Part shown: positions 10,508 to 25,792 of the stretch, in pieces
Layout: the number at the start of each line of letters is the position of its first letter
How positions within the stretch are numbered: position 1 is the first letter of the stretch
Origin: a virus
Lineage: Duplodnaviria; Caudoviricetes
Virus record (IMG/VR): IMGVR_UViG_3300035696_000004
Location: 96,001-160,000 of that record
Direction: 5' to 3' (one strand)
Length of the DNA stretch: 64,000 nucleotides
Program-made: the position numbers and the translations under genes
The notes under the pieces: model-generated
Databases searched by the model: none
Seen by the model: the letters and a program-made list of their open reading frames with translations, nothing else
Told to the model about the DNA's origin: nothing

Positions 10508-11110
10508 CTAATGGTCTTTGTAGGTGGGTGGCCACCCGGTGGTGTAATCGTATCCCAGGACAGACACCGCTGTTGCGCCATCCGCAGCAGCGAGAGCTTG
10601 CATGTTTGCCTTGTGGACATTAGCTGCTTTCGAGATGGCAGCGGACTGTTCAATCCCCGCCGTAAAAGCAGCGGTCGCAAATGCTTGATTGACAGGAATG
10701 ACGGTTTCATCCATACATGTCCAATCAATCCCGGACGGAATGTTTGCGCCCATTCCCGAAAACACGATGACCCGTGTCTTGTTGACTTCATCCGATTGAA
10801 TCCAGTACGTCGTTTCCGAAAGAACCACAGGATACCCACCGTTGAGATCCAGTGCGCGACTGTAGGCTTCAACACCGGCTAATTGAAACGCCAATGCACG
10901 GGCAACACTCGCGGGCGCCGTCAGGTGCGCTGTAATCACAGTTGTGATCGCATCTTCATTCCCGGATGCCGTTTGATCGAACTCCAGCGTATAGCCAAAC
11001 GTCGACATCGAAAAGGAGGATCCACATGCCGCTACCAATTCATCAGCCAGTGCAGCTGGGGAGAAATCAGGGTAGCTTCCATCGGCATTGGGCTGAATGA
11101 TGTATTGCAT
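10508..11110 (-). CDS. DUF4376-like tail-fibre-associated protein
   Basis: Start 11110 (MQYIIQP); WIQSDE..., WTCMDE, C-terminal YDYTTGWP typical of fibre-assembly proteins. Confidence 0.65.
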   Translation of the reverse strand: MQYIIQPNADGSYPDFSPAALADELVAACGSSFSMSTFGYTLEFDQTASGNEDAITTVITAHLTAPASVARALAFQLAGVEAYSRALDLNGGYPVVLSETTYWIQSDEVNKTRVIVFSGMGANIPSGIDWTCMDETVIPVNQAFATAAFTAGIEQSAAISKAANVHKANMQALAAADGATAVSVLGYDYTTGWPPTYKDH

Positions 11111-11124
11111 GTTTTTTCCTTTGA

Positions 11125-11709
11125 TTAGACGAGTCCGATGAATCCGGGTAAGAATTTGGCTTCGATAGTGCCCGCCAGTTGCACAGCGTGCTTCACTGTG
11201 CCTTCCCAATCCTGTTTGTCGATGATTATCCTGTCCCGGAAAAATGAGGCCCACTGGAACTCACTGTAGGGCGTATGGACTTTCGTAAAGCCACCAGCGT
11301 CACGACACACCCCAGCGAGAGATCGGTACGGATCATCGACCAAATCTTCCACACGTTTCGGGATTTGTGTCACGGACATCAGTTTTCCATCTGGACCTCC
11401 GAGATACAGAAGCTCCATGACGGACATGACTCGGAAGAACTTGTCCGGAGGGATGGTGTGGAATTCATGCACGGCATTGTAATAGCAGTGCTTGTGTTTT
11501 CTCCTGACCAGCGCCAGACCGAGATGGTGGTGATCAATCATGAACTTTCTGTTGCGGGGACCGGTGACGACCGGGAAAGGATGTTCCTGCAAATACAGAT
11601 CCAGTTCCTTCTCGGTCATCCCCTCGAGTCGAGCCTCTTTCAATTCCACTTCTTTATACCCTACCACAATTTGGGTAGGGTGAAGCTCGACGACTTCACC
11701 CTTATGCAT
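11125..11709 (-). CDS. stand-alone ParB-like (ParBc_2/sulfiredoxin-fold) protein
   Basis: LHPTQIVVG, IDHHHL, DDPYRSLAG, PYSEFQWA, C-terminal LPGF. Confidence 0.8.
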   Translation of the reverse strand: MHKGEVVELHPTQIVVGYKEVELKEARLEGMTEKELDLYLQEHPFPVVTGPRNRKFMIDHHHLGLALVRRKHKHCYYNAVHEFHTIPPDKFFRVMSVMELLYLGGPDGKLMSVTQIPKRVEDLVDDPYRSLAGVCRDAGGFTKVHTPYSEFQWASFFRDRIIIDKQDWEGTVKHAVQLAGTIEAKFLPGFIGLV

Positions 11710-11723
11710 TTTCGTTCCTTCCC

Positions 11724-14066
11724 TTAGCGCGCGAGCGCTGTCTTGTTGGGCATCTCAGCAAACGCCATGTAGATATAGCTATCGCCACTCTTGTTTGTAC
11801 CGGCATTGGCGTCACCGAGTAGGAAACCGTTGGACAGGAAATAATCCGTTCCATAGGCTGTCTGCTCAACTGCCGCTGAATCCGCATACAGTGAGTTGGT
11901 TACCGGGTTGACCGGATTCCTAACCGCATCCAACATGACCCAATCGGTGGTGCCGGTGGTGATGTCTTTGATCATGACGAACTTGGGACGGAAACCGCAG
12001 TAGACGAAATTACCCGTCGTCAACCCATTCCCGGTGTACGTACCAAACTTCGAGAAGTTTGGAATCTCTGAAAAGAGATACGCTACATATGTTGCGCCAG
12101 ACGCATTGACGTTGCTGGCACCCGACGTCCCTGTCGTGAACCCAAAGGTCGTTGACGTAGGAGAGGTGCTGATAGCGCCGTTTGCTGTGGCGGCAATCGG
12201 CAATTGTGCAGCCGGCTGATCCAGCTGGATGTAATATCCAGAGGTCAATCCCTTGTGGTAGACAAACCAATCGGTCGTCCCCGCAGAGCGACACTTCACG
12301 ATAATCATTGCCGGAACAACACCCAACGAATGCGCAATCGTTCGAGTCGTCGTTCCGTCACCCGTGTAAGTCTGGATGTCGATACCGGCCTTCGGGTCTT
12401 TCTTCCAGAACCAATCCACGTACGTCCGACCGCTGACGCCCAGATTGACATCCATCGTCACGCCATCCGAATTGAATGACGTGACCGAGTTGGCAGTGGA
12501 TTCTACAGTTTGGGTGTCGCTGTGCAACGTAGCGTTGACACCTCGGATGATGTCCATCAGGTTGTTACTATCCGAGGTATTCCGACACTTAGACCACACC
12601 ATGCCCGGAGCAAACAACATCCCCGAGATTGTCGTCGATGCACCCGTACCTGATCGAGCATCGATATCGAAATACTGCTTGGGGTTTTGAATAACGGGGG
12701 CGTTGAGATTCGAAGAGCACAGCGTCGTTGCACCCGACGGTTTGGTACGAATAAACGCGCGCTGGCCAAAGTTGATTGACACTTTATCGGTCGTCGCGTA
12801 GCATTCAACAAACGCACCCCATTGACGACCGTCGACAGCGAGTGTCGCAATCGTCACCCATGTCGTCCCGTCAACAGTATAACTCAGTTGATTCAACGTC
12901 CCATCAAACATGAATCCGATCGTGGTCCCGGTCGTATACGTCAAATGACCCGATGCGCCTGTGGTACTTTCGACGTACCAGTAGCCTGTCTGACTGACGG
13001 CGACAACACCGGCTCCCAGACTGGATGAGAACGACCCTGAGAGCGCAGCGATACCCAAGTTGATTTGAGTACCGAGGTTAGCAATCGTCACTTCCCAGTA
13101 GTACTTGCCTGCCCCAAACGCCATGTTTGCAGGTGCCATCCCGTACGCTCCGTTGCCGACAGCGTAGGTGTTGCCGACCGACAACGTGAGGGCGGTACCG
13201 AGTTGACCTTGCGGGTTCAGTGTCGGGAAGTTGTTTGTCGGGGTATCCAGCTGAGGATCGTACGTCGGGTCAGTGACCACACTAAACCCGGATGCGGTCC
13301 ACGTGTTTCCGAGACCGCTCGAATCTGTACCAAGCGCGGCTAAAGAACCTACCGAGCTGAAGTTCAGATACGCACCATTTGTTCCATACGTGCCCGTGTA
13401 CTTCTTCGGTAGCCACGCTCCCGATACAGGATCCGTATAGCCAAACGAAGAAGGTGTCAACGCTTGGCCGTCGACTTTGACGACTTCGGCGAAGAGCATA
13501 TTGGAATACTGGAGGTACGTCCCCGTCTGACCACTTCGGCCTATGAATTCAGGATACGTCGTAGTGTTGACGCTGGTTGTTGCATTTTGGGCATATGTTG
13601 CGGTAAACGTCATTGAGACAGCTTGACCATTCACCCACGCGAGCACACGGTTGGCGGCTGTGGCGTTGGTCGTATCGACAGCGAGCAAGACATGATACCA
13701 CGACGCTGTGTCGATATACACCCCTGCTGAAGTCCCTAAACAAGGGTTGCTACCAGGGATACCATCAAGGTAGTAGAGCTTCCCAGCGCTATTGATACGG
13801 AAACCTGTGTAGTTGTTGCCCGCCGTGTCGCCAGCTTCAAATAAAACTTCTCCTGTGGCGCCAATAGGATCGCTACGCTTGATCCAGGCGGACCAGGTCC
13901 AGGTCTTCGAATTCGAAGCGGAGGAATTGGTGCGCGTCAGATAGCTGGATTGTGCCGCCCGAGCACGCAAGGAGTTGGCGATCTGATACCCGACGCTTCC
14001 GCCGCCCGCACCACCATTGATAAAGAACGGAGCGAGGCGACGTTTTCGTTTTGTTGCATTGAGCAT
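11724..14066 (-). CDS. receptor-binding/tail-fibre protein with LamG/ConA-like, SPRY-like and two C-terminal beta modules
   Basis: KTWTWSAWIKR, WYHVLLAVDTT, GKYYWEV, YTGDG/YTGNG...PKFVMIK repeats; start 14066 after AAGGGG. Confidence 0.75.
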   Translation of the reverse strand: MLNATKRKRRLAPFFINGGAGGGSVGYQIANSLRARAAQSSYLTRTNSSASNSKTWTWSAWIKRSDPIGATGEVLFEAGDTAGNNYTGFRINSAGKLYYLDGIPGSNPCLGTSAGVYIDTASWYHVLLAVDTTNATAANRVLAWVNGQAVSMTFTATYAQNATTSVNTTTYPEFIGRSGQTGTYLQYSNMLFAEVVKVDGQALTPSSFGYTDPVSGAWLPKKYTGTYGTNGAYLNFSSVGSLAALGTDSSGLGNTWTASGFSVVTDPTYDPQLDTPTNNFPTLNPQGQLGTALTLSVGNTYAVGNGAYGMAPANMAFGAGKYYWEVTIANLGTQINLGIAALSGSFSSSLGAGVVAVSQTGYWYVESTTGASGHLTYTTGTTIGFMFDGTLNQLSYTVDGTTWVTIATLAVDGRQWGAFVECYATTDKVSINFGQRAFIRTKPSGATTLCSSNLNAPVIQNPKQYFDIDARSGTGASTTISGMLFAPGMVWSKCRNTSDSNNLMDIIRGVNATLHSDTQTVESTANSVTSFNSDGVTMDVNLGVSGRTYVDWFWKKDPKAGIDIQTYTGDGTTTRTIAHSLGVVPAMIIVKCRSAGTTDWFVYHKGLTSGYYIQLDQPAAQLPIAATANGAISTSPTSTTFGFTTGTSGASNVNASGATYVAYLFSEIPNFSKFGTYTGNGLTTGNFVYCGFRPKFVMIKDITTGTTDWVMLDAVRNPVNPVTNSLYADSAAVEQTAYGTDYFLSNGFLLGDANAGTNKSGDSYIYMAFAEMPNKTALAR

Positions 14067-14083
14067 TTCTGTCCCCTTGCTGA

Positions 14084-14473
14084 TTACGAAATGTTGTTGG
14101 TGTAACCTTCGCAATACAGAATGTTGCTCGCACCGCCGACGAAGTTAAATACGCAGACTCCCGACAAATTCGTGGGTACCGTCCCATTCGGGAACTTGAA
14201 GCCAGCCGATGCCCAGCTAGGCGTGAAGCCTGCTGTCGTGAGGATGAGCTTGTACATCGCGCCAGCCAAGATATTGGTCGGTGCGGCAAACGCTCTGGCA
14301 GCGGTCAACGTGCAGCTGACGACCTGTCCATTTGCCGTTCCGTCCCAGGCAATGGACGCTGCATCGGTGAGGGTCCCGGACAACGGGACTTGTTGTGCAG
14401 TGAACGTTTCTTGGGTTCCCAAGTTAGCATTCGTTGCATCTTTTTTTGCCAGGGCAAGTGTGGCAGAAGTCAT
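14084..14473 (-). CDS. small tail-fibre connector protein
   Basis: 129 aa; LTDAASIAWD...FKFPNGTVP module seen in fibre proteins; MTSATLALAK leader. Confidence 0.65.
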   Translation of the reverse strand: MTSATLALAKKDATNANLGTQETFTAQQVPLSGTLTDAASIAWDGTANGQVVSCTLTAARAFAAPTNILAGAMYKLILTTAGFTPSWASAGFKFPNGTVPTNLSGVCVFNFVGGASNILYCEGYTNNIS

Positions 14474-14492: not shown

Positions 14493-14951
14493 TTACTTGG
14501 TGCGTTTGCCAGAGAAATACGTGTACTGTTGCGCGTTGGTGAGGCCGTCAGCGACAGCGCTGTAATACATGAGTTGGGCGTAATCACCCGCAGCGAGTTT
14601 TACAGGACCCGACGTTCCGCAAAGATTAAAGTTCGCAGAGCCGGAAGCCTCGATGGTTTCTTGCATTCGGAGTCGAAATACCCCGTTGACATACAGGTCG
14701 ATTGCTCGGTTACCTGGGCTAGCTGTCGAACCATGTACCCCGGCAGCAAATTCATACGTCCCGGCCTGTTGAGCTGTGAACCGCATGGTGCTCGTGCTGA
14801 ATTCAGTCAGATCATCAAACAAGACGGATTGAAAGTTGACGGCGGTGTACGTGGCCGCTGAGATAGATTGTGAAACAGATTGGTACACTGAAAAGTTACT
14901 CATCGCAGACATCTTTGCAATGAGGTTTGCCATGGTGGCGGCTTGAGTCAT
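14493..14951 (-). CDS. free-standing C1q/TNF-like tip domain, paralog 1
   Basis: FTAQQAGTYEF, LYVNG, VKLAAGDYAQL, YFSG: C1q-like beta sandwich; paralogous to the long-fibre C-terminus. Confidence 0.75.
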   Translation of the reverse strand: MTQAATMANLIAKMSAMSNFSVYQSVSQSISAATYTAVNFQSVLFDDLTEFSTSTMRFTAQQAGTYEFAAGVHGSTASPGNRAIDLYVNGVFRLRMQETIEASGSANFNLCGTSGPVKLAAGDYAQLMYYSAVADGLTNAQQYTYFSGKRTK

Positions 14952-14962
14952 TTCGAGCGTCC

Positions 14963-15418
14963 TTATTTTGTTCGTTGGCCAGAAAAATAGGTTATTGTGG
15001 AACCGGCTGTACTGGTGTCCGCTATGCCAGAAAAATAATACAGCTGTACATAGTCACCGGCATTCAGCTTCACAGGACCAGAGGAACCAGCAAAGGTAGC
15101 GCCACCAGCGGTGCTGCCAGTTTCTTGCATCCGGACGCGTTCTACACCATTGACGAACAGATACAAAATCTTTGCAGGACCACTCGTCGTCGTTCCGTGC
15201 ACTCCACCGAAGAATACGTACGTACCAGCTTGTTGGGCAGTAAACTTCGCCGCTGTACCAAGGGTACATTCACCCAGATCGTCGAATAAGGCTGCTTGGC
15301 AATTTAACGCCGCAGCTGTCGTGGCGGCGAACGACTGACTCGCATTCTGGTATAGATAGAAGTTCGACATTGTCGCCTTTGCTGCTAGCGAATACGCCAT
15401 TTGTGCAGCTTGCGTCAT
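14963..15418 (-). CDS. free-standing C1q/TNF-like tip domain, paralog 2
   Basis: Start 15418 (MTQAAQM) after AAGGA; FTAQQAGTYVF, LFVNG, VKLNAGDYVQL. Confidence 0.75.
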   Translation of the reverse strand: MTQAAQMAYSLAAKATMSNFYLYQNASQSFAATTAAALNCQAALFDDLGECTLGTAAKFTAQQAGTYVFFGGVHGTTTSGPAKILYLFVNGVERVRMQETGSTAGGATFAGSSGPVKLNAGDYVQLYYFSGIADTSTAGSTITYFSGQRTK

Positions 15419-15429
15419 TATTGTATCCT

Positions 15430-15891
15430 TTAATTTCCAATCGCCCACCAGTTAAAGCCCTGGACATTTGTCGATGCAATCGACATGATGGCCGCTATTT
15501 TCATTCCTGTTTTTGACTGTGATTCAGTATCAAAAACAAAAGGGTACGCGAGGATACTTACCCCGTTCAAAGATACGCCAGACCAAACGCATGCCGTTGG
15601 GAAAGCGAGTGGGAAGGTTATCACGGAATACGAAAACGTATTGGCCGTAAAGCTGGAGATCGATGTGTATCCCCACTGCAAAATCAACCCGCCTAGGCAC
15701 GAAGGCAGTTTGATGTACCCGTTGGCTCCGATACTGATCGAGAACCCTAAAGCCGTCATGATCACGGCCATTGCATTCCGAATCCAACTCGTGCTGGCAG
15801 GGTTTGCACTGTTATCAGCAAAAGAGGAATCATTGGTAGCGGTTTTGGTGGATTCGCTCCCATGTTGACCGTTTTGTGTTGCTTGTGTCAT
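15430..15891 (-). CDS. free-standing tail-fibre C-terminal (gp53-like/lectin-like) domain protein
   Basis: NGYIKLPSCLGGLILQWG, ITFPLAFPTAC, WWAIGN end. Confidence 0.75.
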   Translation of the reverse strand: MTQATQNGQHGSESTKTATNDSSFADNSANPASTSWIRNAMAVIMTALGFSISIGANGYIKLPSCLGGLILQWGYTSISSFTANTFSYSVITFPLAFPTACVWSGVSLNGVSILAYPFVFDTESQSKTGMKIAAIMSIASTNVQGFNWWAIGN

Positions 15892-15912
15892 GACGTAATA
15901 TCCTGTTGTGGG

Positions 15913-15941
15913 ACGGGGGAGGGATTTTTACCCTCCCCCGT
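15913..15941. other. GC-rich hairpin without a U-tract between the long fibre and the tip genes
   Basis: CGGGGGAGGG/CCCTCCCCCG 10-bp stem. Confidence 0.55.
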
Positions 15942-15950
15942 TGTTACATT

Positions 15951-18900
15951 TTACTTGACGCGATACCCACCAAAGAACGTATAGATACTCGACGCAATCA
16001 AGGTGTCAGCGACAGCCGGGTTGTAATACAACTGGACGTAGTCACCTGCGTTCAGCTTGATCGGACCCGACGTGGTTCCGAGCGGCAAGTTACCGTTGCT
16101 GTTGGAGGACGCCAAATACACTTTCAACACGCCATTGACATAGATCGCCAATGCGCGGGTGCCGGCCGTGGTGGACGAACCCAACACAGCGCCAGTGAAC
16201 ACATACGTACCTGCATTCACCGCGGTGAACTTGCCAGCCGTGCCCAAGGTGAACTCACCCAGATCATCAAACGTCGCTGTCTGGAAGTTCAGTGCATTCC
16301 AAGCACCCGCCGTAATCGTCTGGGCACTCGATTGATATACCGAGAAGTTCGACATCGCCACTTTCGTGACCATACTCCCTTCGGCAATATACCACGCACT
16401 CACGCCATCACTCTTAAGAATAGCCGTGTCGCTGTTCCCAAAGGTGAGCACCGAATACTTCGTGGCACCCGAATAGATACCGTCCGTACCCGCCGGAACA
16501 ACTGTCGCCCCAGCAATCATGCTCACAAATTGAATGGCGTAACCAGCCGGGAACGTCGATGCTGACGGCAACGTCGATTGCGTAGCCGTCTTCAGCAACA
16601 GCATCTGACCCATGACACTCGTCGTCAACACAGCCACAGCACTGACAGATGTGATGCCATTAGCACCCATTTGGCTTTGCTGCATCTGCACCAGTGTCGG
16701 GCAGTTGGCGATGTTGTACGGCAGGTACGCTACGACTTGAACCAGCGCCCCAGCAGGGATCAGGCTCGGCGTCGTCATGGTGACAGTCAAACCGTCCGTT
16801 GCCGTAAAGTCCGGTAAACCGTACTTAACACCGTTGACGAACACGTCCACCAGACCCGGGATATAACTGAACCCGGATTGCGAGAACGAAGCCTGCGAAG
16901 CCGTTGCCGTGAACTCAGTCGTAACACGCAGCAGCGTAGCATTCGTACTGGAGTAGCCGTACCACGCCACAAAGCTGACGTTTTCACCACCTGCAAACGT
17001 ACCGGACGGGAAGACGACCGTGCTACCGTTCGTTGCCGTAAAGTCCGATGCTGGCAACTTACGGCCTTGAACAAACGCTTGGAGCAAGTTCGGTGCGTAG
17101 TTCAGGTTGAACGTCGTTTGGTTTGCCGTTGCGGTAAACTCGTACGGCACGTAGCAGGCCGATTGACCCACGACACCATTGATGTTCGTTCCGTCACCAT
17201 ATACCACCATGCTACCGTTGTTCGGCAGGGCAATGCCCGTACCCGTAGCGCCTTGGGCCGTAACAGCGTAGCCACCCGTCGTTTGGTTCTCAACGATCCA
17301 GTTCCCTACCAGCGGGAACACAATCGTCGTAGCAGCCGTTGTGACACCCGTCAACTTGATCGTTGCGTTGGCTAGTTGTGCAGCCGACAGTGCCAAACTC
17401 GTGTAGCCCGTCACCGATACCGATACGACACCGTTGAACAACTGCGTCACGGCGTTGGCAATTTGCGTCAACGCACTGTTTGCAGAAGTCTGCGCGGCCG
17501 CCGCATTCGTGATACCGGTTTGGGCATCCGTCTCTGCGGTGTTGGCTTTGGTTTGAGCCGTGGCAGCATTGGTAATCGCCGTCTGAGCATCGGATTCAGC
17601 TTGAGAAGCCGCGGCAGCTGTTGCAGGAGTGAATCCCAGAGCAGTCGTCACATCCGAACTGGTCAACGTAACCGCACCGATACGACCATTGAACGAACCC
17701 ACTTCCGTAGATTGTCCATCGATCTTATCCCACGTCGTGCCATCGAAGGTCACGAAGTCGTTGACACTCCAGGACGAGACGCCATCCAGAGTCGTCGTAC
17801 CTGCTACGCTCACCTTGTAGAAATACCCCTTCGTACCCGTGCCGCTCGCAAGAGTCGGAGTGTTGGTAGAAGCATTCCACGTACCTTGGTAGTTCTCCGC
17901 ACCCAAGACCGAAGCAGGCAGTTGAGACGTCGGGATCTTGCCATTACTGTCGAGCGTAGCCACACCACCTGCCACCCCCTCCAGCGCAGTACTGATAGGA
18001 GTAAAGCCCAGCGCCGCGGTAACATCAGCAGACGCGAGTGCACGACCTGCCGTAGCGCGACCTTTAGCATCCACCGTCACGACGCCATACGTACCTGCCG
18101 CAATACCAGATGCCGCCAACGTGGCGGTCAGACTTCCTGCGGCGACGGTCACGTCCCCCGTCAAACCAGGGAATTCAGCCGGCAACAGATAGCCGTTCGA
18201 ATCCAGTTCTGCAACACCCGACTTCGCACCCAGGAGTGCTGCATTGATCGGCGTGAAACCCAGGGCCGACTCAATAGCCGCAGCCGTCGCTGCTACAGGG
18301 TTATATCCCAATGCAACAACAATGGCACCGACCGTCGCTTGGAGCGGCGTATAGCCGAGCGCACCACTGACATCGGTCGAACTCAATGCAGTACCCGCCG
18401 ACACACGACCCTTGGCATCAACCGTTACCTTGGTGTAGGTTCCGGCCGCGACACCCGTGTTGGACAACGTCAGGGCAAGTGCAGTCGAACCCGAACCCGT
18501 CACATCACCGGTTACCGTGATGGTTTGGTTTCCGGAAATATAACCATTCGGGTTTGTTGCATTATAAGGTGTGAAGCCAAGAGCGGCTTCCAGAGCAGCA
18601 GCGGTATTGGCAACCGGGGTGTAACCCAGAACAGCCGCAATCGCTGCCGACGTGTTAGCCAGAGGGGTGAAGCCCAACGCTGACACAACATCCGCCGAAG
18701 TCAGGCTGATCGCACCCGTGCGTCCATTGAACGAAAGCAACTCGTTAGCAATACCGTCGATCTTGTCGTAGGTCGTGCCGTTGAAGATGATCGTGTCGCC
18801 TACATTCCAGGTCGAAATTCCATCGACAGTGGTCGAACCAGCGGTGCTGACTTTGTAATAGTAGCCTTTCGTACCGACACCGCTAGCCAAAGCTGGCGTA

Positions 18901-20183
18901 TTGGTAGAGGCATTCCAGACACCTTGATAGACAACAGCACCCAGCAAGGACGACGGGATCTGGGACGACAACAGGCGGCCATCCGTACCCAGTTGAGCAA
19001 TGCCGTTAGCAGCACCAACGATAGCCGAATTCACCGGAACAAACCCGAGGGCTGTTTCGATGCTGCTTTGCGTCATCGCTGCAATAACGGATGCCGAAAT
19101 CGTCGACAGTTTGGAGTCGATTTGTTCCGTGCTGTAGACATCCAGATTGGCACGGGCCGTAACAAAGTTGGCCAGATCCGACAGGTTGCTGGCTTTAGCC
19201 AACGCAGCGGAGGCCGCATTTGCCAAGGCTTCATTGGCGGTGGTCTGCGCAGCAGCGGCAGCGGCGATAGCCGCCTGTGCATCAGACTCTGCCTGATTGG
19301 CAGTCGTTTGCGCGGAAGACGCACTGGTTTGGGCAGCCGTTGCCAACGAGTTGGCCGTAGCGGCATTCCGAATACCCGTTTGAGCATCCGTTTCCGCTTG
19401 GTTAGCAGTTGATTGTGCAGCCGTTGCAGCGGACTGAGCAGTCGTCGCGGTCGTTTGTGCCTGGTTGGCTGTCGATTGTGCTGCCAGAGCAGCACCATCT
19501 GCCGTAGCTGCATTCGCCAGTGCTTGTTGCGCATCGCTTTCAGCGGTGTTGGCTTTGGTCTGGGCAGCTGCTGCTGCCGTAATGGCAGTTTGAGCGTCTT
19601 GCTCTGCCTGATTGGCTACGCCCGTTGTGGCACTCAGCGTCGTACTCAGCGACTGGAGATCCGTTTCCTTCGCATAAACAGGGAACGGATTGACTTCTGC
19701 TTGCAGTTCAGCGATCTGATCCCCCACATACGCTTGGGTCGCATACAGAGAGGCGCTGCCATCGACCACAGTCACGCTGGTCGAGTTGCTTTCAGCGACG
19801 ATCATCTGGATCGGCAGCGGGTTCGGGGCGCCGTTCGTTGCCACTTCTTTCAGAGTCGCCGGGACGTTGGCAATGACCAAGAGCGTACCAGACGAATCCA
19901 CAATCCCTGCTTCGCGAATCGTCCAGCCCCCGATCGTATTCGGGATGACGATATTGGCCAGCAGCTGATTGGTATTTTTGGGGTCTTTGTAGACCGACCC
20001 GTATTGAGAGAACGGGAAGGCGTGGACCTGGTTGACGAGTGCGGTGTCGGATTCTTCAGGTGTGGTGGCAGCGCCGTTACCGTCCCCAACCACCATCGCG
20101 TGAAAGTCGAGCGCAGCACCACCAGCATCGGCTGCTGCTTTAGCAGCAAGACCGGCGGTCGTCCAGATTGTACCGTAAGTCAT
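15951..20183 (-). CDS. long tail fibre (P2 gpH-type N-terminal anchor, coiled coil, repeats, C1q-like tip)
   Basis: Start probably 20183; TTAGLAAKAAA...VGDGNG...GGWTIREAGI N-terminus; ALGFTP repeats; C1q-like C-terminus. Confidence 0.88.
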   Translation of the reverse strand: MTYGTIWTTAGLAAKAAADAGGAALDFHAMVVGDGNGAATTPEESDTALVNQVHAFPFSQYGSVYKDPKNTNQLLANIVIPNTIGGWTIREAGIVDSSGTLLVIANVPATLKEVATNGAPNPLPIQMIVAESNSTSVTVVDGSASLYATQAYVGDQIAELQAEVNPFPVYAKETDLQSLSTTLSATTGVANQAEQDAQTAITAAAAAQTKANTAESDAQQALANAATADGAALAAQSTANQAQTTATTAQSAATAAQSTANQAETDAQTGIRNAATANSLATAAQTSASSAQTTANQAESDAQAAIAAAAAAQTTANEALANAASAALAKASNLSDLANFVTARANLDVYSTEQIDSKLSTISASVIAAMTQSSIETALGFVPVNSAIVGAANGIAQLGTDGRLLSSQIPSSLLGAVVYQGVWNASTNTPALASGVGTKGYYYKVSTAGSTTVDGISTWNVGDTIIFNGTTYDKIDGIANELLSFNGRTGAISLTSADVVSALGFTPLANTSAAIAAVLGYTPVANTAAALEAALGFTPYNATNPNGYISGNQTITVTGDVTGSGSTALALTLSNTGVAAGTYTKVTVDAKGRVSAGTALSSTDVSGALGYTPLQATVGAIVVALGYNPVAATAAAIESALGFTPINAALLGAKSGVAELDSNGYLLPAEFPGLTGDVTVAAGSLTATLAASGIAAGTYGVVTVDAKGRATAGRALASADVTAALGFTPISTALEGVAGGVATLDSNGKIPTSQLPASVLGAENYQGTWNASTNTPTLASGTGTKGYFYKVSVAGTTTLDGVSSWSVNDFVTFDGTTWDKIDGQSTEVGSFNGRIGAVTLTSSDVTTALGFTPATAAAASQAESDAQTAITNAATAQTKANTAETDAQTGITNAAAAQTSANSALTQIANAVTQLFNGVVSVSVTGYTSLALSAAQLANATIKLTGVTTAATTIVFPLVGNWIVENQTTGGYAVTAQGATGTGIALPNNGSMVVYGDGTNINGVVGQSACYVPYEFTATANQTTFNLNYAPNLLQAFVQGRKLPASDFTATNGSTVVFPSGTFAGGENVSFVAWYGYSSTNATLLRVTTEFTATASQASFSQSGFSYIPGLVDVFVNGVKYGLPDFTATDGLTVTMTTPSLIPAGALVQVVAYLPYNIANCPTLVQMQQSQMGANGITSVSAVAVLTTSVMGQMLLLKTATQSTLPSASTFPAGYAIQFVSMIAGATVVPAGTDGIYSGATKYSVLTFGNSDTAILKSDGVSAWYIAEGSMVTKVAMSNFSVYQSSAQTITAGAWNALNFQTATFDDLGEFTLGTAGKFTAVNAGTYVFTGAVLGSSTTAGTRALAIYVNGVLKVYLASSNSNGNLPLGTTSGPIKLNAGDYVQLYYNPAVADTLIASSIYTFFGGYRVK

Positions 20184-20284
20184 GAGGGGATTCCAATCGT
20201 ATCGATTAAGGTTAATACACTTCACTTCTGCGCAAAATGAATTGCTATTGTGAATCTATGTATCACAGTATTTTGCGACCATTT

Positions 20285-20336
20285 CAGCCATAAAGGAGTA
20301 CCCTCACCCGGGCGGTGAGGGTACTCCGACTATGTC
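20285..20336 (-). terminator. hairpin terminator followed by TTTATGGCTG
   Basis: 14-bp stem GGAGTACCCTCACC/GGTGAGGGTACTCC. Confidence 0.75.
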
Positions 20337-23242
20337 CTAGTCTCAATGTTCATGTTACCGGCTGTTGCCAGCCGAGTCATGGTTCCTGCGGATACATACC
20401 ACAGTTTTGCGACTTTGTGAAGACCGAAAAATGTCTTCTTGCTCAGGACCGACGTGACCTGTCCGTGGTTTGCTGCTGCTTGCAATGCCATGTACGACGG
20501 GGTTTGTTCAAGCGAACCATCCACCGAGAATACACTGAAGTTGTCCGTACCCGCTGTGCTGTTCGAGAAGGACAGGGAACCGGATCCGTTGAACTCAGTA
20601 CCGATTCCGTACATCTCCATCTCGGCTTCAACAGCAGGTGCAGCAACCAGAGCCGCTGTGGTAGCAGCACTCGTAATCCCTTTACGGAACTCACGAGTCA
20701 GTCCTGCCTCACGACCATCCAGATAGTTCCGCTCACCTCCACAGAACGACTTCACGCTGTAGCGTGTTCCGCTGTTATACAGCAGCGGGAAGAGATAGGC
20801 CTGATTACCGGACCACGTGGCAAACTCAGACAACAATGCAGCATTCGCATATTTCCTGAGCTGCACAGCAGCTGTCGTGTATTTCACATACGCCCAGACG
20901 ACATCAGCATTGTATCCCGATACCGCCGACAGGTCGCCAAACGACAAGCTGTTGGTCGATGTGGTCGTGGTCAATTTACCCGTACCGTCAATCACCAGTT
21001 TGTTGTTGATGTAAACGAAGTAGTCCGATCCTTTCCCCGTCACGTAAATGACGTTCTCGGCTGATCTGAGGTCCACCTGATAGATTGCATCCGGTGTTCC
21101 TGCCAGTGCTCCGCCTGTTGCAATGAACCCTTCCTGCATCGAAATGATCAATGCTTTCGTGCCATCCAAAATCTGAATAGCGGCTTCACCGGACAACGTA
21201 GACGCACCCGAACTCGATTCAATCCGGGCTTTGGCAACCACGGACCATCCATTCGCATTGCTGAACCCAGCAGACGCTTTGGTGTAATACCCGGTATCGG
21301 TCGTAGCGTATGCGCCCGCAGACTGGAACAACCGGCTATTGAGAATCGACATGACATTCGATTCACCTGCCGTCCCTGTAAACGTATACCCGAGCGTAGA
21401 AGGCAACGCCGTAAAGAGCGACGACACCGTCCAGGCAATGGATTCCGGAAGACCGCAACCTAGCGTTGCTTGAGCGAGGTCTCTCCAACCCTCCGACATC
21501 GTGAACGTCTGCGCCGTCAACGACTTCGTTGTCGTTCCACCCGTGTTGGAACTGGTCAGAGTGATGAAGTCTGCACCGTCGCCCACAACCCGATACGTCA
21601 CGCCCACGTCTGTCGCGAGGCCGGCGATTGCTGTTCCGGACAAGCTGTACAACGTACCATCTCCACGATAGAGATAGAGCGTCAATACACCAGTCGCAGA
21701 TACAAAGCCCACGAGCCGGTCGTGATCGACACCGTATGCGATATCGAACAAGATCTCGCTAGCGGATGCTGTCGGTACAGTCCCACGCCAAATGATCGAG
21801 CCCTGCTTCCCGTCAAAGAAGTTCTTGGCGGGTTGTTGGAGACCTTTAGATTGGTTGATCGGAGACCCTGTCAGGAATTTCAACTGTTGGTCAAACAAAC
21901 CACTCGACTGAAGGAACGTGTTTGCCGAAGGGGACTCAACCATGAAACAGGTCGAGTAACCCGGGGTCGAAGTCCACGTCGGGCTCGACGTCCCCAAGAT
22001 GTAATTCCCAAGGGGATACTTCGAACGCGTTGTTCCTTTAAGAACAGGATAGTTCGTCGAATTGGTCGTGCCGGTCGTCGCCACGACGTAGTATTGCGTA
22101 CCCGCTGTCAATGCTGCTGGCGTTGTCAACGGAAGTCTATACCACGCACCGTAAGCCTTACTCGTGATGCGCAGCAGATTCATGGTCGCCGTAGCACCAC
22201 TGATCGCAGCACTCGGAAGACCCGAACCATTGTCGGTATAGATAGAGAAGGTAACCGTTTGGTTAGCCGAACCCACCTTTGCCAGTTTGACCCAGACGTA
22301 GCCGTAGGTTCCCGTCTCACCAACTTTGAAACCCGATGCGACATTGACATTCGACGCTGCTGAACCAATCGGAAACGAAGTATCATCCTGAATCTGGAGC
22401 GTAGCCGGTTCAAAACGAATCAGGTTGTCAGTCTGATTATCGACCATCTCGTGACCCAGATAGGCGCCGCCCCATTGATGATTGAACGTATCCGGAATCC
22501 ACCCAGCACGAACAATATCTCGCCACTTTCCATCAACGGATGGATAGAGCAAGTTCGTCAGGAAAGCCGACGACCCAAAAGGCAGCCCAGCACCTGTTTG
22601 CAGGGACGCTACGGCCGCCTGAGCGGCTTTCGCCTGTGTGATGCCAGATTGTGCATCTGATTCAGCTTGGTTCGCTGTAGACTGCGCTGCGGCTGCGGCA
22701 GCGATACCCGTTTGAGCATCGCTTTCAGCGGTGTTGGCTTTGGTCTGCGCAGCACTCGCTGTATTGCTGATCGAAGCGAGCTGATCCTGGACGTACGCTT
22801 GGCTTGCCATGACATCGGTTTGATCGCTGATGATCGATACGGCAGATGTCGACGTTACAGCAATGGCAGCACGCACTACAAAGGTCCCTACAGATCCATC
22901 CGCCGAGACTGTCTTGGTTTGGGCAGGGTAGTTACCCACCGCCAAGATGTCTCCCGATCCATCCAGGATAGCAAATTCACGAATGGTGAATCCGCCTACC
23001 GATGCTGGGAGATCCAGCTCCACCAGAATCTGTCCGGCTGTATTGGGATCAGGATAGCAGTTGGTAACCGCTGCACTGTAAACTTTATTTTTCAGACCAT
23101 TGACAATGGTCGTTGGATTGACAAAGGCACCACTACCATCGCCGAGTTGAAATGTGACGAAATCAACCGCTGTTTTGTTGGCAATAGCAGTGGCGAGGAT
23201 AGAAGCCCCCGCGGGCGTCAGCAGAGTGTAATACGTGCTCAT
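20330..23242 (-). CDS. second tail fibre (P2 gpH-type N-terminal anchor, LamG-like domains)
   Basis: YYTLLTPAG...GDGSG...GGFTIREFAI N-terminus; shared AESDAQ coiled coil; beta-rich distal part. Confidence 0.85.
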   Translation of the reverse strand: MSTYYTLLTPAGASILATAIANKTAVDFVTFQLGDGSGAFVNPTTIVNGLKNKVYSAAVTNCYPDPNTAGQILVELDLPASVGGFTIREFAILDGSGDILAVGNYPAQTKTVSADGSVGTFVVRAAIAVTSTSAVSIISDQTDVMASQAYVQDQLASISNTASAAQTKANTAESDAQTGIAAAAAAQSTANQAESDAQSGITQAKAAQAAVASLQTGAGLPFGSSAFLTNLLYPSVDGKWRDIVRAGWIPDTFNHQWGGAYLGHEMVDNQTDNLIRFEPATLQIQDDTSFPIGSAASNVNVASGFKVGETGTYGYVWVKLAKVGSANQTVTFSIYTDNGSGLPSAAISGATATMNLLRITSKAYGAWYRLPLTTPAALTAGTQYYVVATTGTTNSTNYPVLKGTTRSKYPLGNYILGTSSPTWTSTPGYSTCFMVESPSANTFLQSSGLFDQQLKFLTGSPINQSKGLQQPAKNFFDGKQGSIIWRGTVPTASASEILFDIAYGVDHDRLVGFVSATGVLTLYLYRGDGTLYSLSGTAIAGLATDVGVTYRVVGDGADFITLTSSNTGGTTTKSLTAQTFTMSEGWRDLAQATLGCGLPESIAWTVSSLFTALPSTLGYTFTGTAGESNVMSILNSRLFQSAGAYATTDTGYYTKASAGFSNANGWSVVAKARIESSSGASTLSGEAAIQILDGTKALIISMQEGFIATGGALAGTPDAIYQVDLRSAENVIYVTGKGSDYFVYINNKLVIDGTGKLTTTTSTNSLSFGDLSAVSGYNADVVWAYVKYTTAAVQLRKYANAALLSEFATWSGNQAYLFPLLYNSGTRYSVKSFCGGERNYLDGREAGLTREFRKGITSAATTAALVAAPAVEAEMEMYGIGTEFNGSGSLSFSNSTAGTDNFSVFSVDGSLEQTPSYMALQAAANHGQVTSVLSKKTFFGLHKVAKLWYVSAGTMTRLATAGNMNIETRT

Positions 23243-23272
23243 GACGTTGACCTTATTATTAGACGTTTGACA

Positions 23273-23857
23273 TTACGTGCTCGACGAAGGATAAACCGTG
23301 ATGCTACTATTGACCGTGACAGACGAACCAATATAGACAGACCCGCCAATAGACAGGCTGGTTCCTGGTACCGCGTTGACCCAACGAACGGTTAGAGGTC
23401 CTTGGAAGAGCAAACTGGTGCTCGCCATCTGTACCGTCAATGAGCTACTGAAAATACCGGCGATGTAATTATCCGATACTGTTGGAAAGACGCCATCAAC
23501 GAAATCATCCGCTGTCAAGTTCAAGCCATACTGGCTATTGAACTGAGCGACCACATCCGAGAATGACACGCTGCTAGCTGTTGTCTCGAAATAGATCTCT
23601 GGGATATCCGTATCGATGTCCAGGATATCGTGCAGATTGATCCGCGAATATTTGACCGAAATACTCCCCGAATACCCGCTACCTGCTTTGGCAGATAACG
23701 TAATCGCCGTGTTTTCACCTCCGTTCGTACTCGGATCTATCGCTACAGGAATCCCCGGCGTCACCAGATCCGCCGAGATGAAGACGGGTTCGGTATTCGC
23801 CGACGCAATCAAGTCCATCAGGTTTTCAAGACCTGTTTTGTTGGCTTCGAGTTTCAT
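23273..23857 (-). CDS. phiKZ-type virion tail/baseplate paralog 1 with C-terminal extension
   Basis: LMDLIASAN, ENTAITLSAKAGSGYSGSISVKYSRI, YGLNLTADD shared with three neighbours. Confidence 0.75.
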   Translation of the reverse strand: MKLEANKTGLENLMDLIASANTEPVFISADLVTPGIPVAIDPSTNGGENTAITLSAKAGSGYSGSISVKYSRINLHDILDIDTDIPEIYFETTASSVSFSDVVAQFNSQYGLNLTADDFVDGVFPTVSDNYIAGIFSSSLTVQMASTSLLFQGPLTVRWVNAVPGTSLSIGGSVYIGSSVTVNSSITVYPSSST

Positions 23858-23886
23858 TTTAGTCTCGTGTCAAGTTAATGGGTCAT

Positions 23887-24507
23887 TTAGCTAGCCGGCC
23901 CCACAGTGATGGATTGACTGATTGTCGTTGCAGCACCTTGGTAGGTCTCTGCATCCAACTCTATAGAAGTCGGTGTTGTCAAACCACCCAAGTTCACTGT
24001 CAGCACCACCTGATCCAGAGGAACGAGGTCATTCTGAATCGTGATCGGGAGTTGACCTAGCCAGACGAGTGCCGTCGACGATGCTGTCAAACCCATGGAC
24101 TCGGTCCCATTCGGGAGGAGTGGGTTTAGATTAATCGTGGCATCGACAATATCGTCCTGCGTAATCTGAAGACCATATCGAGTGTTAATCTCTGTCAAGA
24201 GACCACTCAAGGTGGTCGATCCATTCCGGCTAAACACTGTCGAGAGTGCGCCAGGAATGGAGGACATTTCAATTCTGTTGTACTTCACGGTGACGCTATC
24301 GCTGTAACCAGAACCTGCAATAGCGGTCAGTGAAACGGACGTGTTACCAGCATCGTCACCAACTAAAACAACAGGGCCGCCGATATCAACCTGTTCTGTT
24401 GTCAATGGTGACAGGAGTGAGCCATTTTGAGTATTGGTGTCATTGACCAAGTCTAGCAAAATCTGCTGGCTGGGCTGATTATAATTGCTCACAAAAGAAG
24501 ACGCCAT
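23887..24507 (-). CDS. phiKZ-type virion tail/baseplate paralog 2 with C-terminal extension
   Basis: LLDLVNDTN, GNTSVSLTAIAGSGYSDSVTVKYNRI, INTRYGLQIT. Confidence 0.75.
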   Translation of the reverse strand: MASSFVSNYNQPSQQILLDLVNDTNTQNGSLLSPLTTEQVDIGGPVVLVGDDAGNTSVSLTAIAGSGYSDSVTVKYNRIEMSSIPGALSTVFSRNGSTTLSGLLTEINTRYGLQITQDDIVDATINLNPLLPNGTESMGLTASSTALVWLGQLPITIQNDLVPLDQVVLTVNLGGLTTPTSIELDAETYQGAATTISQSITVGPAS

Positions 24508-24571
24508 GGGGAGATCTCAGGGTGGAATAATCTAAAGAACTGACCATAGGATTCGTTGTAAAAACCACCGT

Positions 24572-24610
24572 GGCGGCATAAAAAACCACAGGACCGAAGT
24601 CCCGTGGTTT
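24572..24610 (-). terminator. cUUCGg hairpin terminator followed by TTTTATGCCGCC
   Basis: Stem-loop immediately after the 24628 stop. Confidence 0.8.
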
Positions 24611-24627
24611 CGGAGCTGAGGCCGCGA

Positions 24628-25167
24628 TTAGGCGGTCGGAGCGGTGTACACCAGGCCCGGCAGGTTCAGCGTGGTGATCACGCTGGTCAGCGGTACGTCG
24701 TTGTTGTCGAGGGTCAGGGTCAGCGAACCTTCCCAGACGAGCGACGTGGACTTGGCGGTGATGGTGAACGGCAGCGAGTCGTGCGGCTGGTTCGGGAACA
24801 CCGGCAGGGCGGCGTCTTCGTAGTCGTCGGCGGTCAGGTTGATGCCGTAGGTCGCGTTGATTTCCGGGATGAGGTCGGAGATCTTGGTCGCGGAACCTTG
24901 GGTGTAGACGGTCGACTTGGCGCCGGGGATGGAGCTCATCGGCACGCGGTTGTAGTTCAGGCTGACGTTGCCACTGTAGCCCGAGCCAGCGGCCGCGGTC
25001 ATGGTGATGTTGGTGTCGCCATTGGCGTTGCCGGCTTGGGCAACCGGTGCGCCGAAGGTAACGAGTTCCGGCGTCAGCGCGGTGACCAGCGAGGCCGAGT
25101 TGGCCGAGTTGATCAGGTCGATGAGGATCTGTGCCGGTGCCTTGGTGAAATCGGGAGTGTATGCCAT
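24628..25167 (-). CDS. phiKZ-type virion tail/baseplate paralog 3 (highly expressed codon usage)
   Basis: LIDLINSAN, GDTNITMTAAAGSGYSGNVSLNYNRV, INATYGINLT. Confidence 0.8.
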   Translation of the reverse strand: MAYTPDFTKAPAQILIDLINSANSASLVTALTPELVTFGAPVAQAGNANGDTNITMTAAAGSGYSGNVSLNYNRVPMSSIPGAKSTVYTQGSATKISDLIPEINATYGINLTADDYEDAALPVFPNQPHDSLPFTITAKSTSLVWEGSLTLTLDNNDVPLTSVITTLNLPGLVYTAPTA

Positions 25168-25246
25168 TGCTTTGGTTTCCTGATAGAGGATGATGGGACA
25201 AAAATGCGGTGTGGACCAGAGGATTACTCCCCCCGCATACTATTAC

Positions 25247-25792
25247 TCAATCCCCGGAAGCAGTTCCAGGGAAGGTCAATCCTAACAACACCAGATTCCT
25301 CGTCAACACGACTTCTTTGAGAGGAATCGGATCACCTGGCCACCGTGGGTATAGGGTTATGCTACCCAGCCACCCCAGCGAGGTGGCTTCGTTGATGGTC
25401 AGGGTGTAGGAATCTTCAACTGTCGTAATCGTCTTATCGACGATTTCATCAGTGGTCAGATTCAGCCCTAAGGCTGTATTGATTCGATCAATGACACTGG
25501 ACAACGTGAACGGAACAACAGGGAGAACCACTTCCTTAATGATGCCGTCAGGTAAGTTATTCAGAATACTGATGTTCAGTCGTTCATAATACACCGTCTC
25601 CGGGAAGGCGACTGCATCACCCTCTAGCGGCTGGACGGTGACGGCAGTGTTTCGCCCCTCGGCATCGGAATACGACTGAGGTGAGCCAAATGCAAAATCA
25701 ACTCCGACAACAAACTGTTTCTGATTGTCTGTGTTGATCATTGAGACCAGTCGTTCGGCACTGGTTCCACTGTACGGGGTTAAATTAGGCAT
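25247..25792 (-). CDS. phiKZ-type virion tail/baseplate paralog 4
   Basis: LVSMINTDN, GRNTAVTV, YYERL, INTALGLNLT. Confidence 0.75.
   Translation of the reverse strand: MPNLTPYSGTSAERLVSMINTDNQKQFVVGVDFAFGSPQSYSDAEGRNTAVTVQPLEGDAVAFPETVYYERLNISILNNLPDGIIKEVVLPVVPFTLSSVIDRINTALGLNLTTDEIVDKTITTVEDSYTLTINEATSLGWLGSITLYPRWPGDPIPLKEVVLTRNLVLLGLTFPGTASGD

Follow-up and report, generated by a model that had tools for sequence, protein, structure and literature searches.

DUF7941 proteins with P2 gpI-like tails as probable fibre adaptors in a Chimalliviridae-like jumbo phage

The window, a stretch of 64,000 nucleotides, is taken from an IMG/VR virus record (IMGVR_UViG_3300035696_000004; bases 96001-160000) that is complete at 219,772 bp and bears direct terminal repeats. 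It encodes four tandem proteins of the DUF7941 family (PF25613) together with two fibres whose N-termini are of the phage P2 gpH type (PF12571). Two of the four, of 194 aa and 206 aa (hereafter adaptor 1 and adaptor 2), end in a short extension resembling the C-terminal tail of P2 gpI, and they are probably chimeric adaptors that tether the P2-type fibres to the peripheral baseplate or to a chain of DUF7941 proteins. We base this reading on the domain architecture, the match of the tails, the lack of a gpI body, the gene neighbourhood and the co-occurrence with PF12571, all of which were observed. Judged by its internal-head, head-tail-joining and virion proteins, the genome is that of an uncultivated Chimalliviridae-like (phiKZ-like) jumbo phage. 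Its closest named relative is Burkholderia phage FLC9, with 49.5% identity over a 984-aa virion protein; the same protein as query led to a single IMG/VR relative, and a megablast of the region against phages gave no match.

Results

Two of four DUF7941 paralogs extend beyond their domain

The order on the minus strand is a 181-aa (25247..25792), a 179-aa (24628..25167), the 206-aa (23887..24507) and the 194-aa (23273..23857) DUF7941 paralog, then a 970-aa and finally a 1410-aa fibre. An earlier note, made from the letters alone, had placed four tandem paralogs at 23273-25792, and all four are indeed PF25613 proteins on that strand (E 8e-20, 2e-32, 3e-34 and 2e-25, respectively; 72-119 bits against a cut-off of 27), the match being confined in each of them to profile positions 1 to ~175 of 276. 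A hidden Markov model (HMM) of the short form of DUF7941, made from 95 short-form homologs, stops at residue 167 in the 194-aa protein and at residue 181 in the 206-aa protein, so that 27 and 25 residues are extra, in agreement with the 25-30 aa that had been noticed on the two fibre-adjacent paralogs; the 181-aa and 179-aa paralogs end together with the domain and carry no tail (the latter ends ...LNLPGLVYTAPTA). The tail of adaptor 1 thus comprises residues 168-194 (23276..23356, minus strand), with a 22-residue core at 169-190 that ends ...SSITVYP four residues before the stop, and the tail of adaptor 2 residues 182-206 (23890..23964, minus strand), with its core at 183-204 ending ...SITVGP two residues before the stop. 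The view that the extension follows a shared L-x-GL end holds for adaptor 2, where the ordinary linker end is retained in addition to the tail; in adaptor 1, the usual L-x-GL-x-Y-x-P end is partly replaced by the tail and does not simply precede it. In an AlphaFold2 model of adaptor 2, the globular domain has a predicted local distance difference test score (pLDDT) above 90 to about residue 170, and residues 181-206 form an unstructured coil (pLDDT 67-71).

Relatives have two conserved short copies at this place, and by BLASTP the 181-aa paralog is the ortholog of the first ("short1", represented by FLC9 gp326; 39-48% identity) and the 179-aa paralog that of the second ("short2", represented by FLC9 gp325; 50-55% identity). 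The two genes with a tail are additional paralogs of the short2 type at ~34% identity (33-34% for the 206-aa protein). A word-indexed homolog search from adaptor 1 returned only adaptor 1 itself. The array occupies its conserved place after the head-tail-joining genes, in synteny with FLC9 and one metagenomic relative, and the long-form paralogs and covalent DUF7941 fusions of relatives are here replaced in position by the two adaptors and the free-standing fibres.

The gpI body domain (Tail_P2_I, PF09684) is absent from all four paralogs and from the whole genome, which holds two PF12571 fibres, five DUF7941 matches and no Tail_P2_I; the fifth DUF7941 protein is encoded elsewhere and has no tail. 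Because the PF09684 body (gpI residues 7-143) is unmatched in them, the four paralogs are not members of the gpI family.

The extensions resemble the tether of P2-like gpI proteins

In P2 itself, a 2026 preprint on the virion reports that gpI is linked to the gpH trimer by its C-terminus, that gpI has no interpretable density from R153 onwards, and that in AlphaFold2-multimer the C-terminus lies between two chains of gpH, where it forms a sheet (10.64898/2026.09.14.750843); the earlier note had likewise named the gpI family as the place where gpH-type fibres attach. The C-terminal motif that the note gave for gpI is real. P2 gpI ends ...GGVAYDGDVITVYPG, and pyocin R2 PA0619 (PDB 6u5b) aligns with it through to the end. 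As a comparison sample, we took 80 IMG/VR loci with a PF12571 fibre N-terminus, all on contigs <100 kb, and read the open reading frame (ORF) ending at the fibre start; 61 of 79 such upstream ORFs have a T-V/I-Y-P type end within their last 12 residues. The motif consists of aromatic-x-G, nine residues at fixed spacing, T-V/I-Y-P and then 0-5 residues. It is present twice, ~25 residues apart, in most gpI-type tails and once only in the P2 clade and in gp91 of the Chimalliviridae phage Goslar. The bodies that carry it are Tail_P2_I, Mu Gp48 (PF10076), DUF2612 (PF11041) and unannotated baseplate proteins, and the stop of gene I lies 0-30 nt from the start of gene H in P2-like phages.

The comparison with the gpI profile proposed in the earlier note could not be made with PF09684, which covers gpI residues 7-143 only. 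A Pfam scan accordingly found no match, even at E 10, in either adaptor tail or in P2's own tail, and since the model stops at residue 143, this outcome is uninformative rather than negative. The comparison did succeed with a profile of the tails themselves. A tail HMM and an ungapped scoring matrix were made from 44 unique 22-residue tails taken from small-phage P2-like loci alone, none of them from the present phage, and all six-frame ORFs of at least 50 aa in the whole genome were scanned (1,943 ORFs; 186,629 sequence windows). By the matrix, the tails of adaptor 1 (27.2 bits) and adaptor 2 (16.6 bits) rank first and second among all 186,629, the best score after them being 15.7 bits, or 9.1 bits when the scan is limited to positions within 6 residues of a stop. 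The score of adaptor 1 was reached by none of 200,000 composition-matched shuffles and that of adaptor 2 by 12 of 200,000, which rules out composition bias as the source of the match. In hmmsearch over the same ORFs, the adaptor 1 tail has E 0.004 and the next match E 4.3.

The two tails, both rich in Ser, Thr and Val, are identical to each other at 8 of 22 positions, five of which are family-conserved columns; Tyr7, Gly9, Thr19, Val20 and Pro22 are kept by both. When a C-terminal tether is defined as aromatic-x-G, nine residues and T-V/I-Y-P at the end, adaptor 1 has one and adaptor 2 a weaker one. Against the DUF7941 HMM, the tails score ~0-3 bits, and with the HMM of gpI tails adaptor 1 reaches 14-20 bits, so an internal duplication of the terminal DUF7941 hairpin is ruled out as their origin.

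Two further observations concern the motif. The core of the 181-aa paralog (25340-25370, residues ~141-150) contains, in its last hairpin, W-L-G-S-I-T-L-Y-P, which is loosely like the first repeat of two-repeat gpI tails; in view of its low tail-matrix score, the likeness is probably due to chance. On 71-97 kb viral contigs (L054:2694-3968 and L056:2144-3529), a 424-461-aa protein with the variant tail ...GVINYPP precedes the PF12571 fibre; it has no Pfam match and falls into PHROG baseplate families. The idea that small phages also carry the tether on non-baseplate bodies was rejected, as even the odd carriers, for which Pfam gave no match, belong by PHROG to baseplate or tail families.

Two gpH-type fibres follow the adaptors

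Fibre 1 (970 aa, 20330..23242, minus strand) begins with a gpH-type N-terminal domain (PF12571, E 1e-34; residues 1-148, 22799-23242), which is 34% identical to the N-terminus of P2 gpH; a shaft of Ala-rich repeats comes next, and the C-terminal part matches no family. Fibre 2 (15951..20183, minus strand), 1410 aa long when read from the ATG at 20183, has a gpH-type N-terminal domain (PF12571, E 5e-34; ~19755-20180), a repeat shaft and a C1q-like tip (E 1e-4, just under the Pfam cut-off); a longer GTG frame begins at 20225, and the alignment with fibre 1 starts at the Met at 20183. The N-termini of the two fibres are 32% identical. Between the stop of adaptor 1 and the start of fibre 1 lies a gap of 30 nt, with an AAGG ribosome-binding site before the fibre start. 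These two are the sole PF12571 matches in the complete genome, so the earlier count of exactly two gpH-type fibres is right for this domain; three small tip-like genes and a 796-aa protein, described below, also follow.

Tails and PF12571 fibres co-occur in Goslar and are absent from the other relatives examined

None of 23 other Chimalliviridae-like records contains a PF12571 fibre, the set including FLC9, SPN3US, phiPA3, a Phikzvirus, RP12, Eowyn, LucasX, others and nine IMG/VR records. Likewise, no gpI-like tail was found on ~100 DUF7941 paralogs in ten related jumbo-phage loci, nor among the best 150 of 390 DUF7941 matches in a library of 1.84 billion proteins. Goslar has both features. 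Its one PF12571 fibre, gp90 (E 1e-43), is directly preceded by gp91, a 175-aa DUF7941 protein that ends ...HLYAGATTVIGDIITIYPG; the gp91 tail scores 34.3 bits with the tail matrix and is identical to P2-clade tails at 14 of 22 positions, and both adaptors align with gp91 by BLASTP from end to end, tails included, at 22-23% identity. The tie between the extension and gpH-type fibres that was anticipated earlier is thus upheld by the 23 relatives lacking PF12571, the ~250 DUF7941 relatives lacking the tail and by Goslar, which possesses the two together. The N-terminus of Goslar gp90 is closest to coliphage P2-like fibres (46%). In a quick tree of fibre N-termini, which has modest support and long branches, Goslar groups with the P2 clade and the two fibres of the window pair together elsewhere. 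These relationships suggest that Goslar and the phage studied here may have made separate captures.

The 2026 Goslar paper described DUF7941 proteins as Chimalliviridae-specific, as joining head-to-tail to form filaments and as associating with the peripheral baseplate; gp91 is counted among them, and the paper is silent on its gpI-like tail and on the attachment of gp90 (PMC13742148). Such oligomers and their anchoring at the baseplate periphery are known from the work on Goslar and phiKZ only. For phiKZ, an atlas shows a different, gp131-type fibre attachment (PMC13250141). Full-text literature searches retrieved no description of a chimera of DUF7941 and a gpI tail. In some relatives (L095:8001-10652, P0009; also P0010, P0011 and P0013), three DUF7941 N-terminal domains occur in one polypeptide of 556-901 aa, so that the units of the proposed head-to-tail chain are here joined covalently.

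Complex prediction with fibre 1 and the tail of adaptor 1

The model comprised the N-terminus of fibre 1 in three copies (165 residues, alignment of 31 rows) and the last 40 residues of adaptor 1. The complex obtained a score of 0.47 (runs 0.47, 0.45 and 0.47), the best of three controls 0.00. Between runs, at least 50% of the contacts were in common; the partner, with a pLDDT of at least 34, is uncertain in its fold. In calibration, 58 of 80 solved complexes and 2 of 110 mismatched pairs attained the mark, in a set-up from which ours differs by its own alignments and multiple copies; scores of 0.60 or under were given to only 7 of the 80 solved complexes and to both mismatches that passed. 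Neither single-sequence nor profile searches with the fibre N-termini detected a PF12571 domain in the PDB, so it is unlikely that the pass reflects recall of a known structure. For the binding of tail and fibre, the prediction is weak support and adds little to the evidence above.

Genes and signals around the fibres

Both fibres share Ala-rich shaft repeats of 63-81 nt (A-E-S-D-A-Q-T-G-I type; 17478-19616 and 22607-22750) with 60-75% DNA identity, which is consistent with a common origin of the two genes or an exchange between them. Just past the fibre 1 stop and before fibre 2, a terminator-like 13-bp GC-rich hairpin followed by TTTAT was read from the sequence (20295..20327, minus strand), and a 12-bp hairpin lies past the fibre 2 stop (15912-15942); each fibre may form a transcription unit of its own, with separate termination or attenuation. 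A consensus scan for promoters and terminators found nothing above chance, the fibre 1 hairpin being unlisted because its T-run is short.

Past fibre 2, three small stand-alone genes (14493..15891, minus strand) encode tip-like proteins of 153 aa (Gp53-like_C), 161 aa (weak C1q) and 152 aa (C1q), according to Pfam, with PHROG matches to tail-fibre C-terminal families. Two of them resemble the C1q-like end of fibre 2 itself, and the three look like free receptor-binding tips; they are given as context and form no part of the adaptor reading. Further downstream, the host-recognition block is extended by a 796-aa protein (11724-14114, minus strand), which has SPRY and DUF7483 domains and matches PHROG tail-fibre or virion-protein families, and by a 248-aa protein (10508-11254, minus strand) that matches DUF4376 weakly.

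Discussion

We propose that the DUF7941 N-terminal domain would dock each adaptor on the peripheral baseplate, on other DUF7941 units, or on both, and that the last ~22 residues (aromatic-x-G, nine residues, T-V-Y/G-P) are probably a copy of the flexible C-terminal tether by which wedge proteins of small myoviruses (P2 gpI, pyocin PA0619 and Mu Gp48 type) hold trimeric gpH-type fibres. The copy would thread into the fibre's N-terminal domain and add a strand to it. With gpI-type tails on DUF7941 carriers, the two P2-type fibres encoded directly downstream would hang non-covalently on a phiKZ-type tail that lacks gpI. The earlier note had interpreted the locus as a fibre socket fused to phiKZ-type baseplate paralogs; gpI-like tails on DUF7941 proteins agree with the fusion, and the tail itself would be a tether or plug, not a socket. 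As for its origin, the 3' end of gene I and the 5' end of gene H were likeliest imported together by recombination with a P2-like phage. These ends lie within 30 nt of each other in the donors, and here the tail stop lies 30 nt before the fibre start; a duplication after import would then have produced two adaptors and two fibres. The position of the adaptors in the virion and their stoichiometry are likewise proposals.

Several points weigh against this reading. The tail of adaptor 2 is weak by HMMER (4.2 bits), since Gly substitutes for Tyr, the most conserved residue of the family, and adaptor 2 is encoded one gene further upstream, adjoining no fibre gene. Each adaptor carries one strand, as compared to the two T-V-Y-P strands of most gpI tails outside the P2 clade, so that the fibres may need something more. 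The computed interface of tail and fibre is weak, and only two independent positive genomes are known. Furthermore, as DUF7941 C-terminal linkers have themselves been proposed to donate strands, the tail could serve DUF7941 self-assembly instead.

Of the alternatives, the best-founded one retains the tether and abandons the idea of one adaptor per fibre: both adaptors might each give one strand to the same trimer, or either might hold either fibre. The two repeats in nearly all gpI-type tails outside the P2 clade, the placement of the window's fibre N-termini outside this single-repeat clade, and a gene order of adaptor-adaptor-fibre-fibre instead of two adaptor-fibre pairs would all be expected under such sharing. 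However, the tree placement is weakly supported and long-branched, Goslar manages with one single-strand adaptor for one fibre, the counts here are two and two, and the divergence among the tails (8 of 22 identical) as well as among the fibre N-termini (32%) would fit specialised pairs. We regard shared or interchangeable use as unlikely; the pairing of one adaptor with one fibre is a proposal.

In the Goslar paper, the part of DUF7941 proteins that follows the N-terminal domain is proposed to supply the next protomer with a strand (PMC13742148), and the Ser/Thr/Val-rich tails could accordingly be self-assembly linkers docking on the next domain, with a convergent likeness to gpI and fibres attached elsewhere. 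Such convergence seems very improbable in the light of tail scores that composition-matched shuffles barely or never reach, of the ~250 other DUF7941 proteins examined, which have no such tail, and of the restriction of the tails to genomes with PF12571 fibres. Moreover, the Goslar tail is identical at 14 of 22 positions to tails of the coliphage P2 clade, adaptor 2 has an ordinary linker end as well as its tail, and no other candidate dock such as the gpI body is present in the genome. That the tails are inert remnants, a donor gene I 3' end fused in frame to a DUF7941 gene by chance, is hardly credible: the short distance between genes I and H means that any import of H with little upstream DNA carries the tail along, and adaptor 1 does lie 30 nt from fibre 1, but two diverged copies, one away from the fibre junction, have kept the conserved positions and the extreme C-terminal place, the same fusion is kept in Goslar, and the fibres have no other known dock in the genome.

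If the two proteins are fibre adaptors, the arrangement is a variant of gpI-gpH docking on an unrelated scaffold, found in a second, distant lineage besides Goslar and in the form of a duplicated and diverged pair. With the P2 gpI-gpH system, of the pyocin R2 PA0619 and Mu Gp48 type, it has in common the tether motif, a PF12571 domain in the partner and a tether gene directly upstream of a fibre gene. In contrast, the carrier of the tether is a wedge (triplex) protein there and the DUF7941 domain of a phiKZ-type tail here, and the present phage has two carriers and two fibres, one of the tails having Gly for the conserved Tyr. Goslar gp91/gp90 is alike in that, in a Chimalliviridae genome, the gene of a PF12571 fibre is immediately preceded by that of a DUF7941 protein with a gpI-like tail. 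It is a system of one adaptor and one fibre, whereas here there are two of each, and the phages are distant, their DUF7941 domains being ~23% identical. Furthermore, the Goslar tail and fibre N-terminus are near those of the coliphage P2 clade (14 of 22 positions; 46%), and those of the present phage are far more diverged (9-10 of 22; 33-43%). Goslar gp22/gp23, phiKZ gp126/gp127 and the SPN3US paralog array share the N-terminal domain, the tandem arrangement and the position after the head-tail-joining block. Unlike the two adaptors, however, other DUF7941 members end with a linker or a C-terminal globular domain (...LHYN), or are covalently fused to carbohydrate-binding domains or further DUF7941 units, and none of those filament or peripheral-baseplate members examined has a gpI-type tether end.

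A more far-reaching proposal, which we put forward tentatively and hold to be doubtful, is that the ~22-residue gpI tether might be a docking peptide which is sufficient by itself and transferable, and which Chimalliviridae would have captured independently at least twice, from coliphage P2-like donors in Goslar and from a different donor here. In the present phage, the unit of adaptor and fibre might have been duplicated and have diverged into two orthogonal pairs (T-V-Y-P and T-V-G-P), placing two different P2-type fibres on DUF7941 filaments away from the wedge, so that dual receptor recognition would be uncoupled from the wedge position of gpI.

The range of bacteria open to a phage is set by its tail fibres, and little is understood of how fibres pass between tails of widely differing architecture. 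In the case described here, a peptide of ~22 residues seems enough to join fibres of the P2/tailocin pool to a phiKZ-type tail that shares no P2 wedge protein. If true, the gpI tail would be a portable docking tag. This would account for the borrowing of receptor-binding proteins by jumbo phages from small temperate phages that share their hosts, and would show concretely where the tail fibres of Goslar-type phages, still unmodelled, are attached; it would also provide a simple handle for studies of fibre attachment in laboratory phage-host pairs. Its occurrence in a second, distant lineage, together with the duplicate copy, suggests a recurrent solution and not a one-off.

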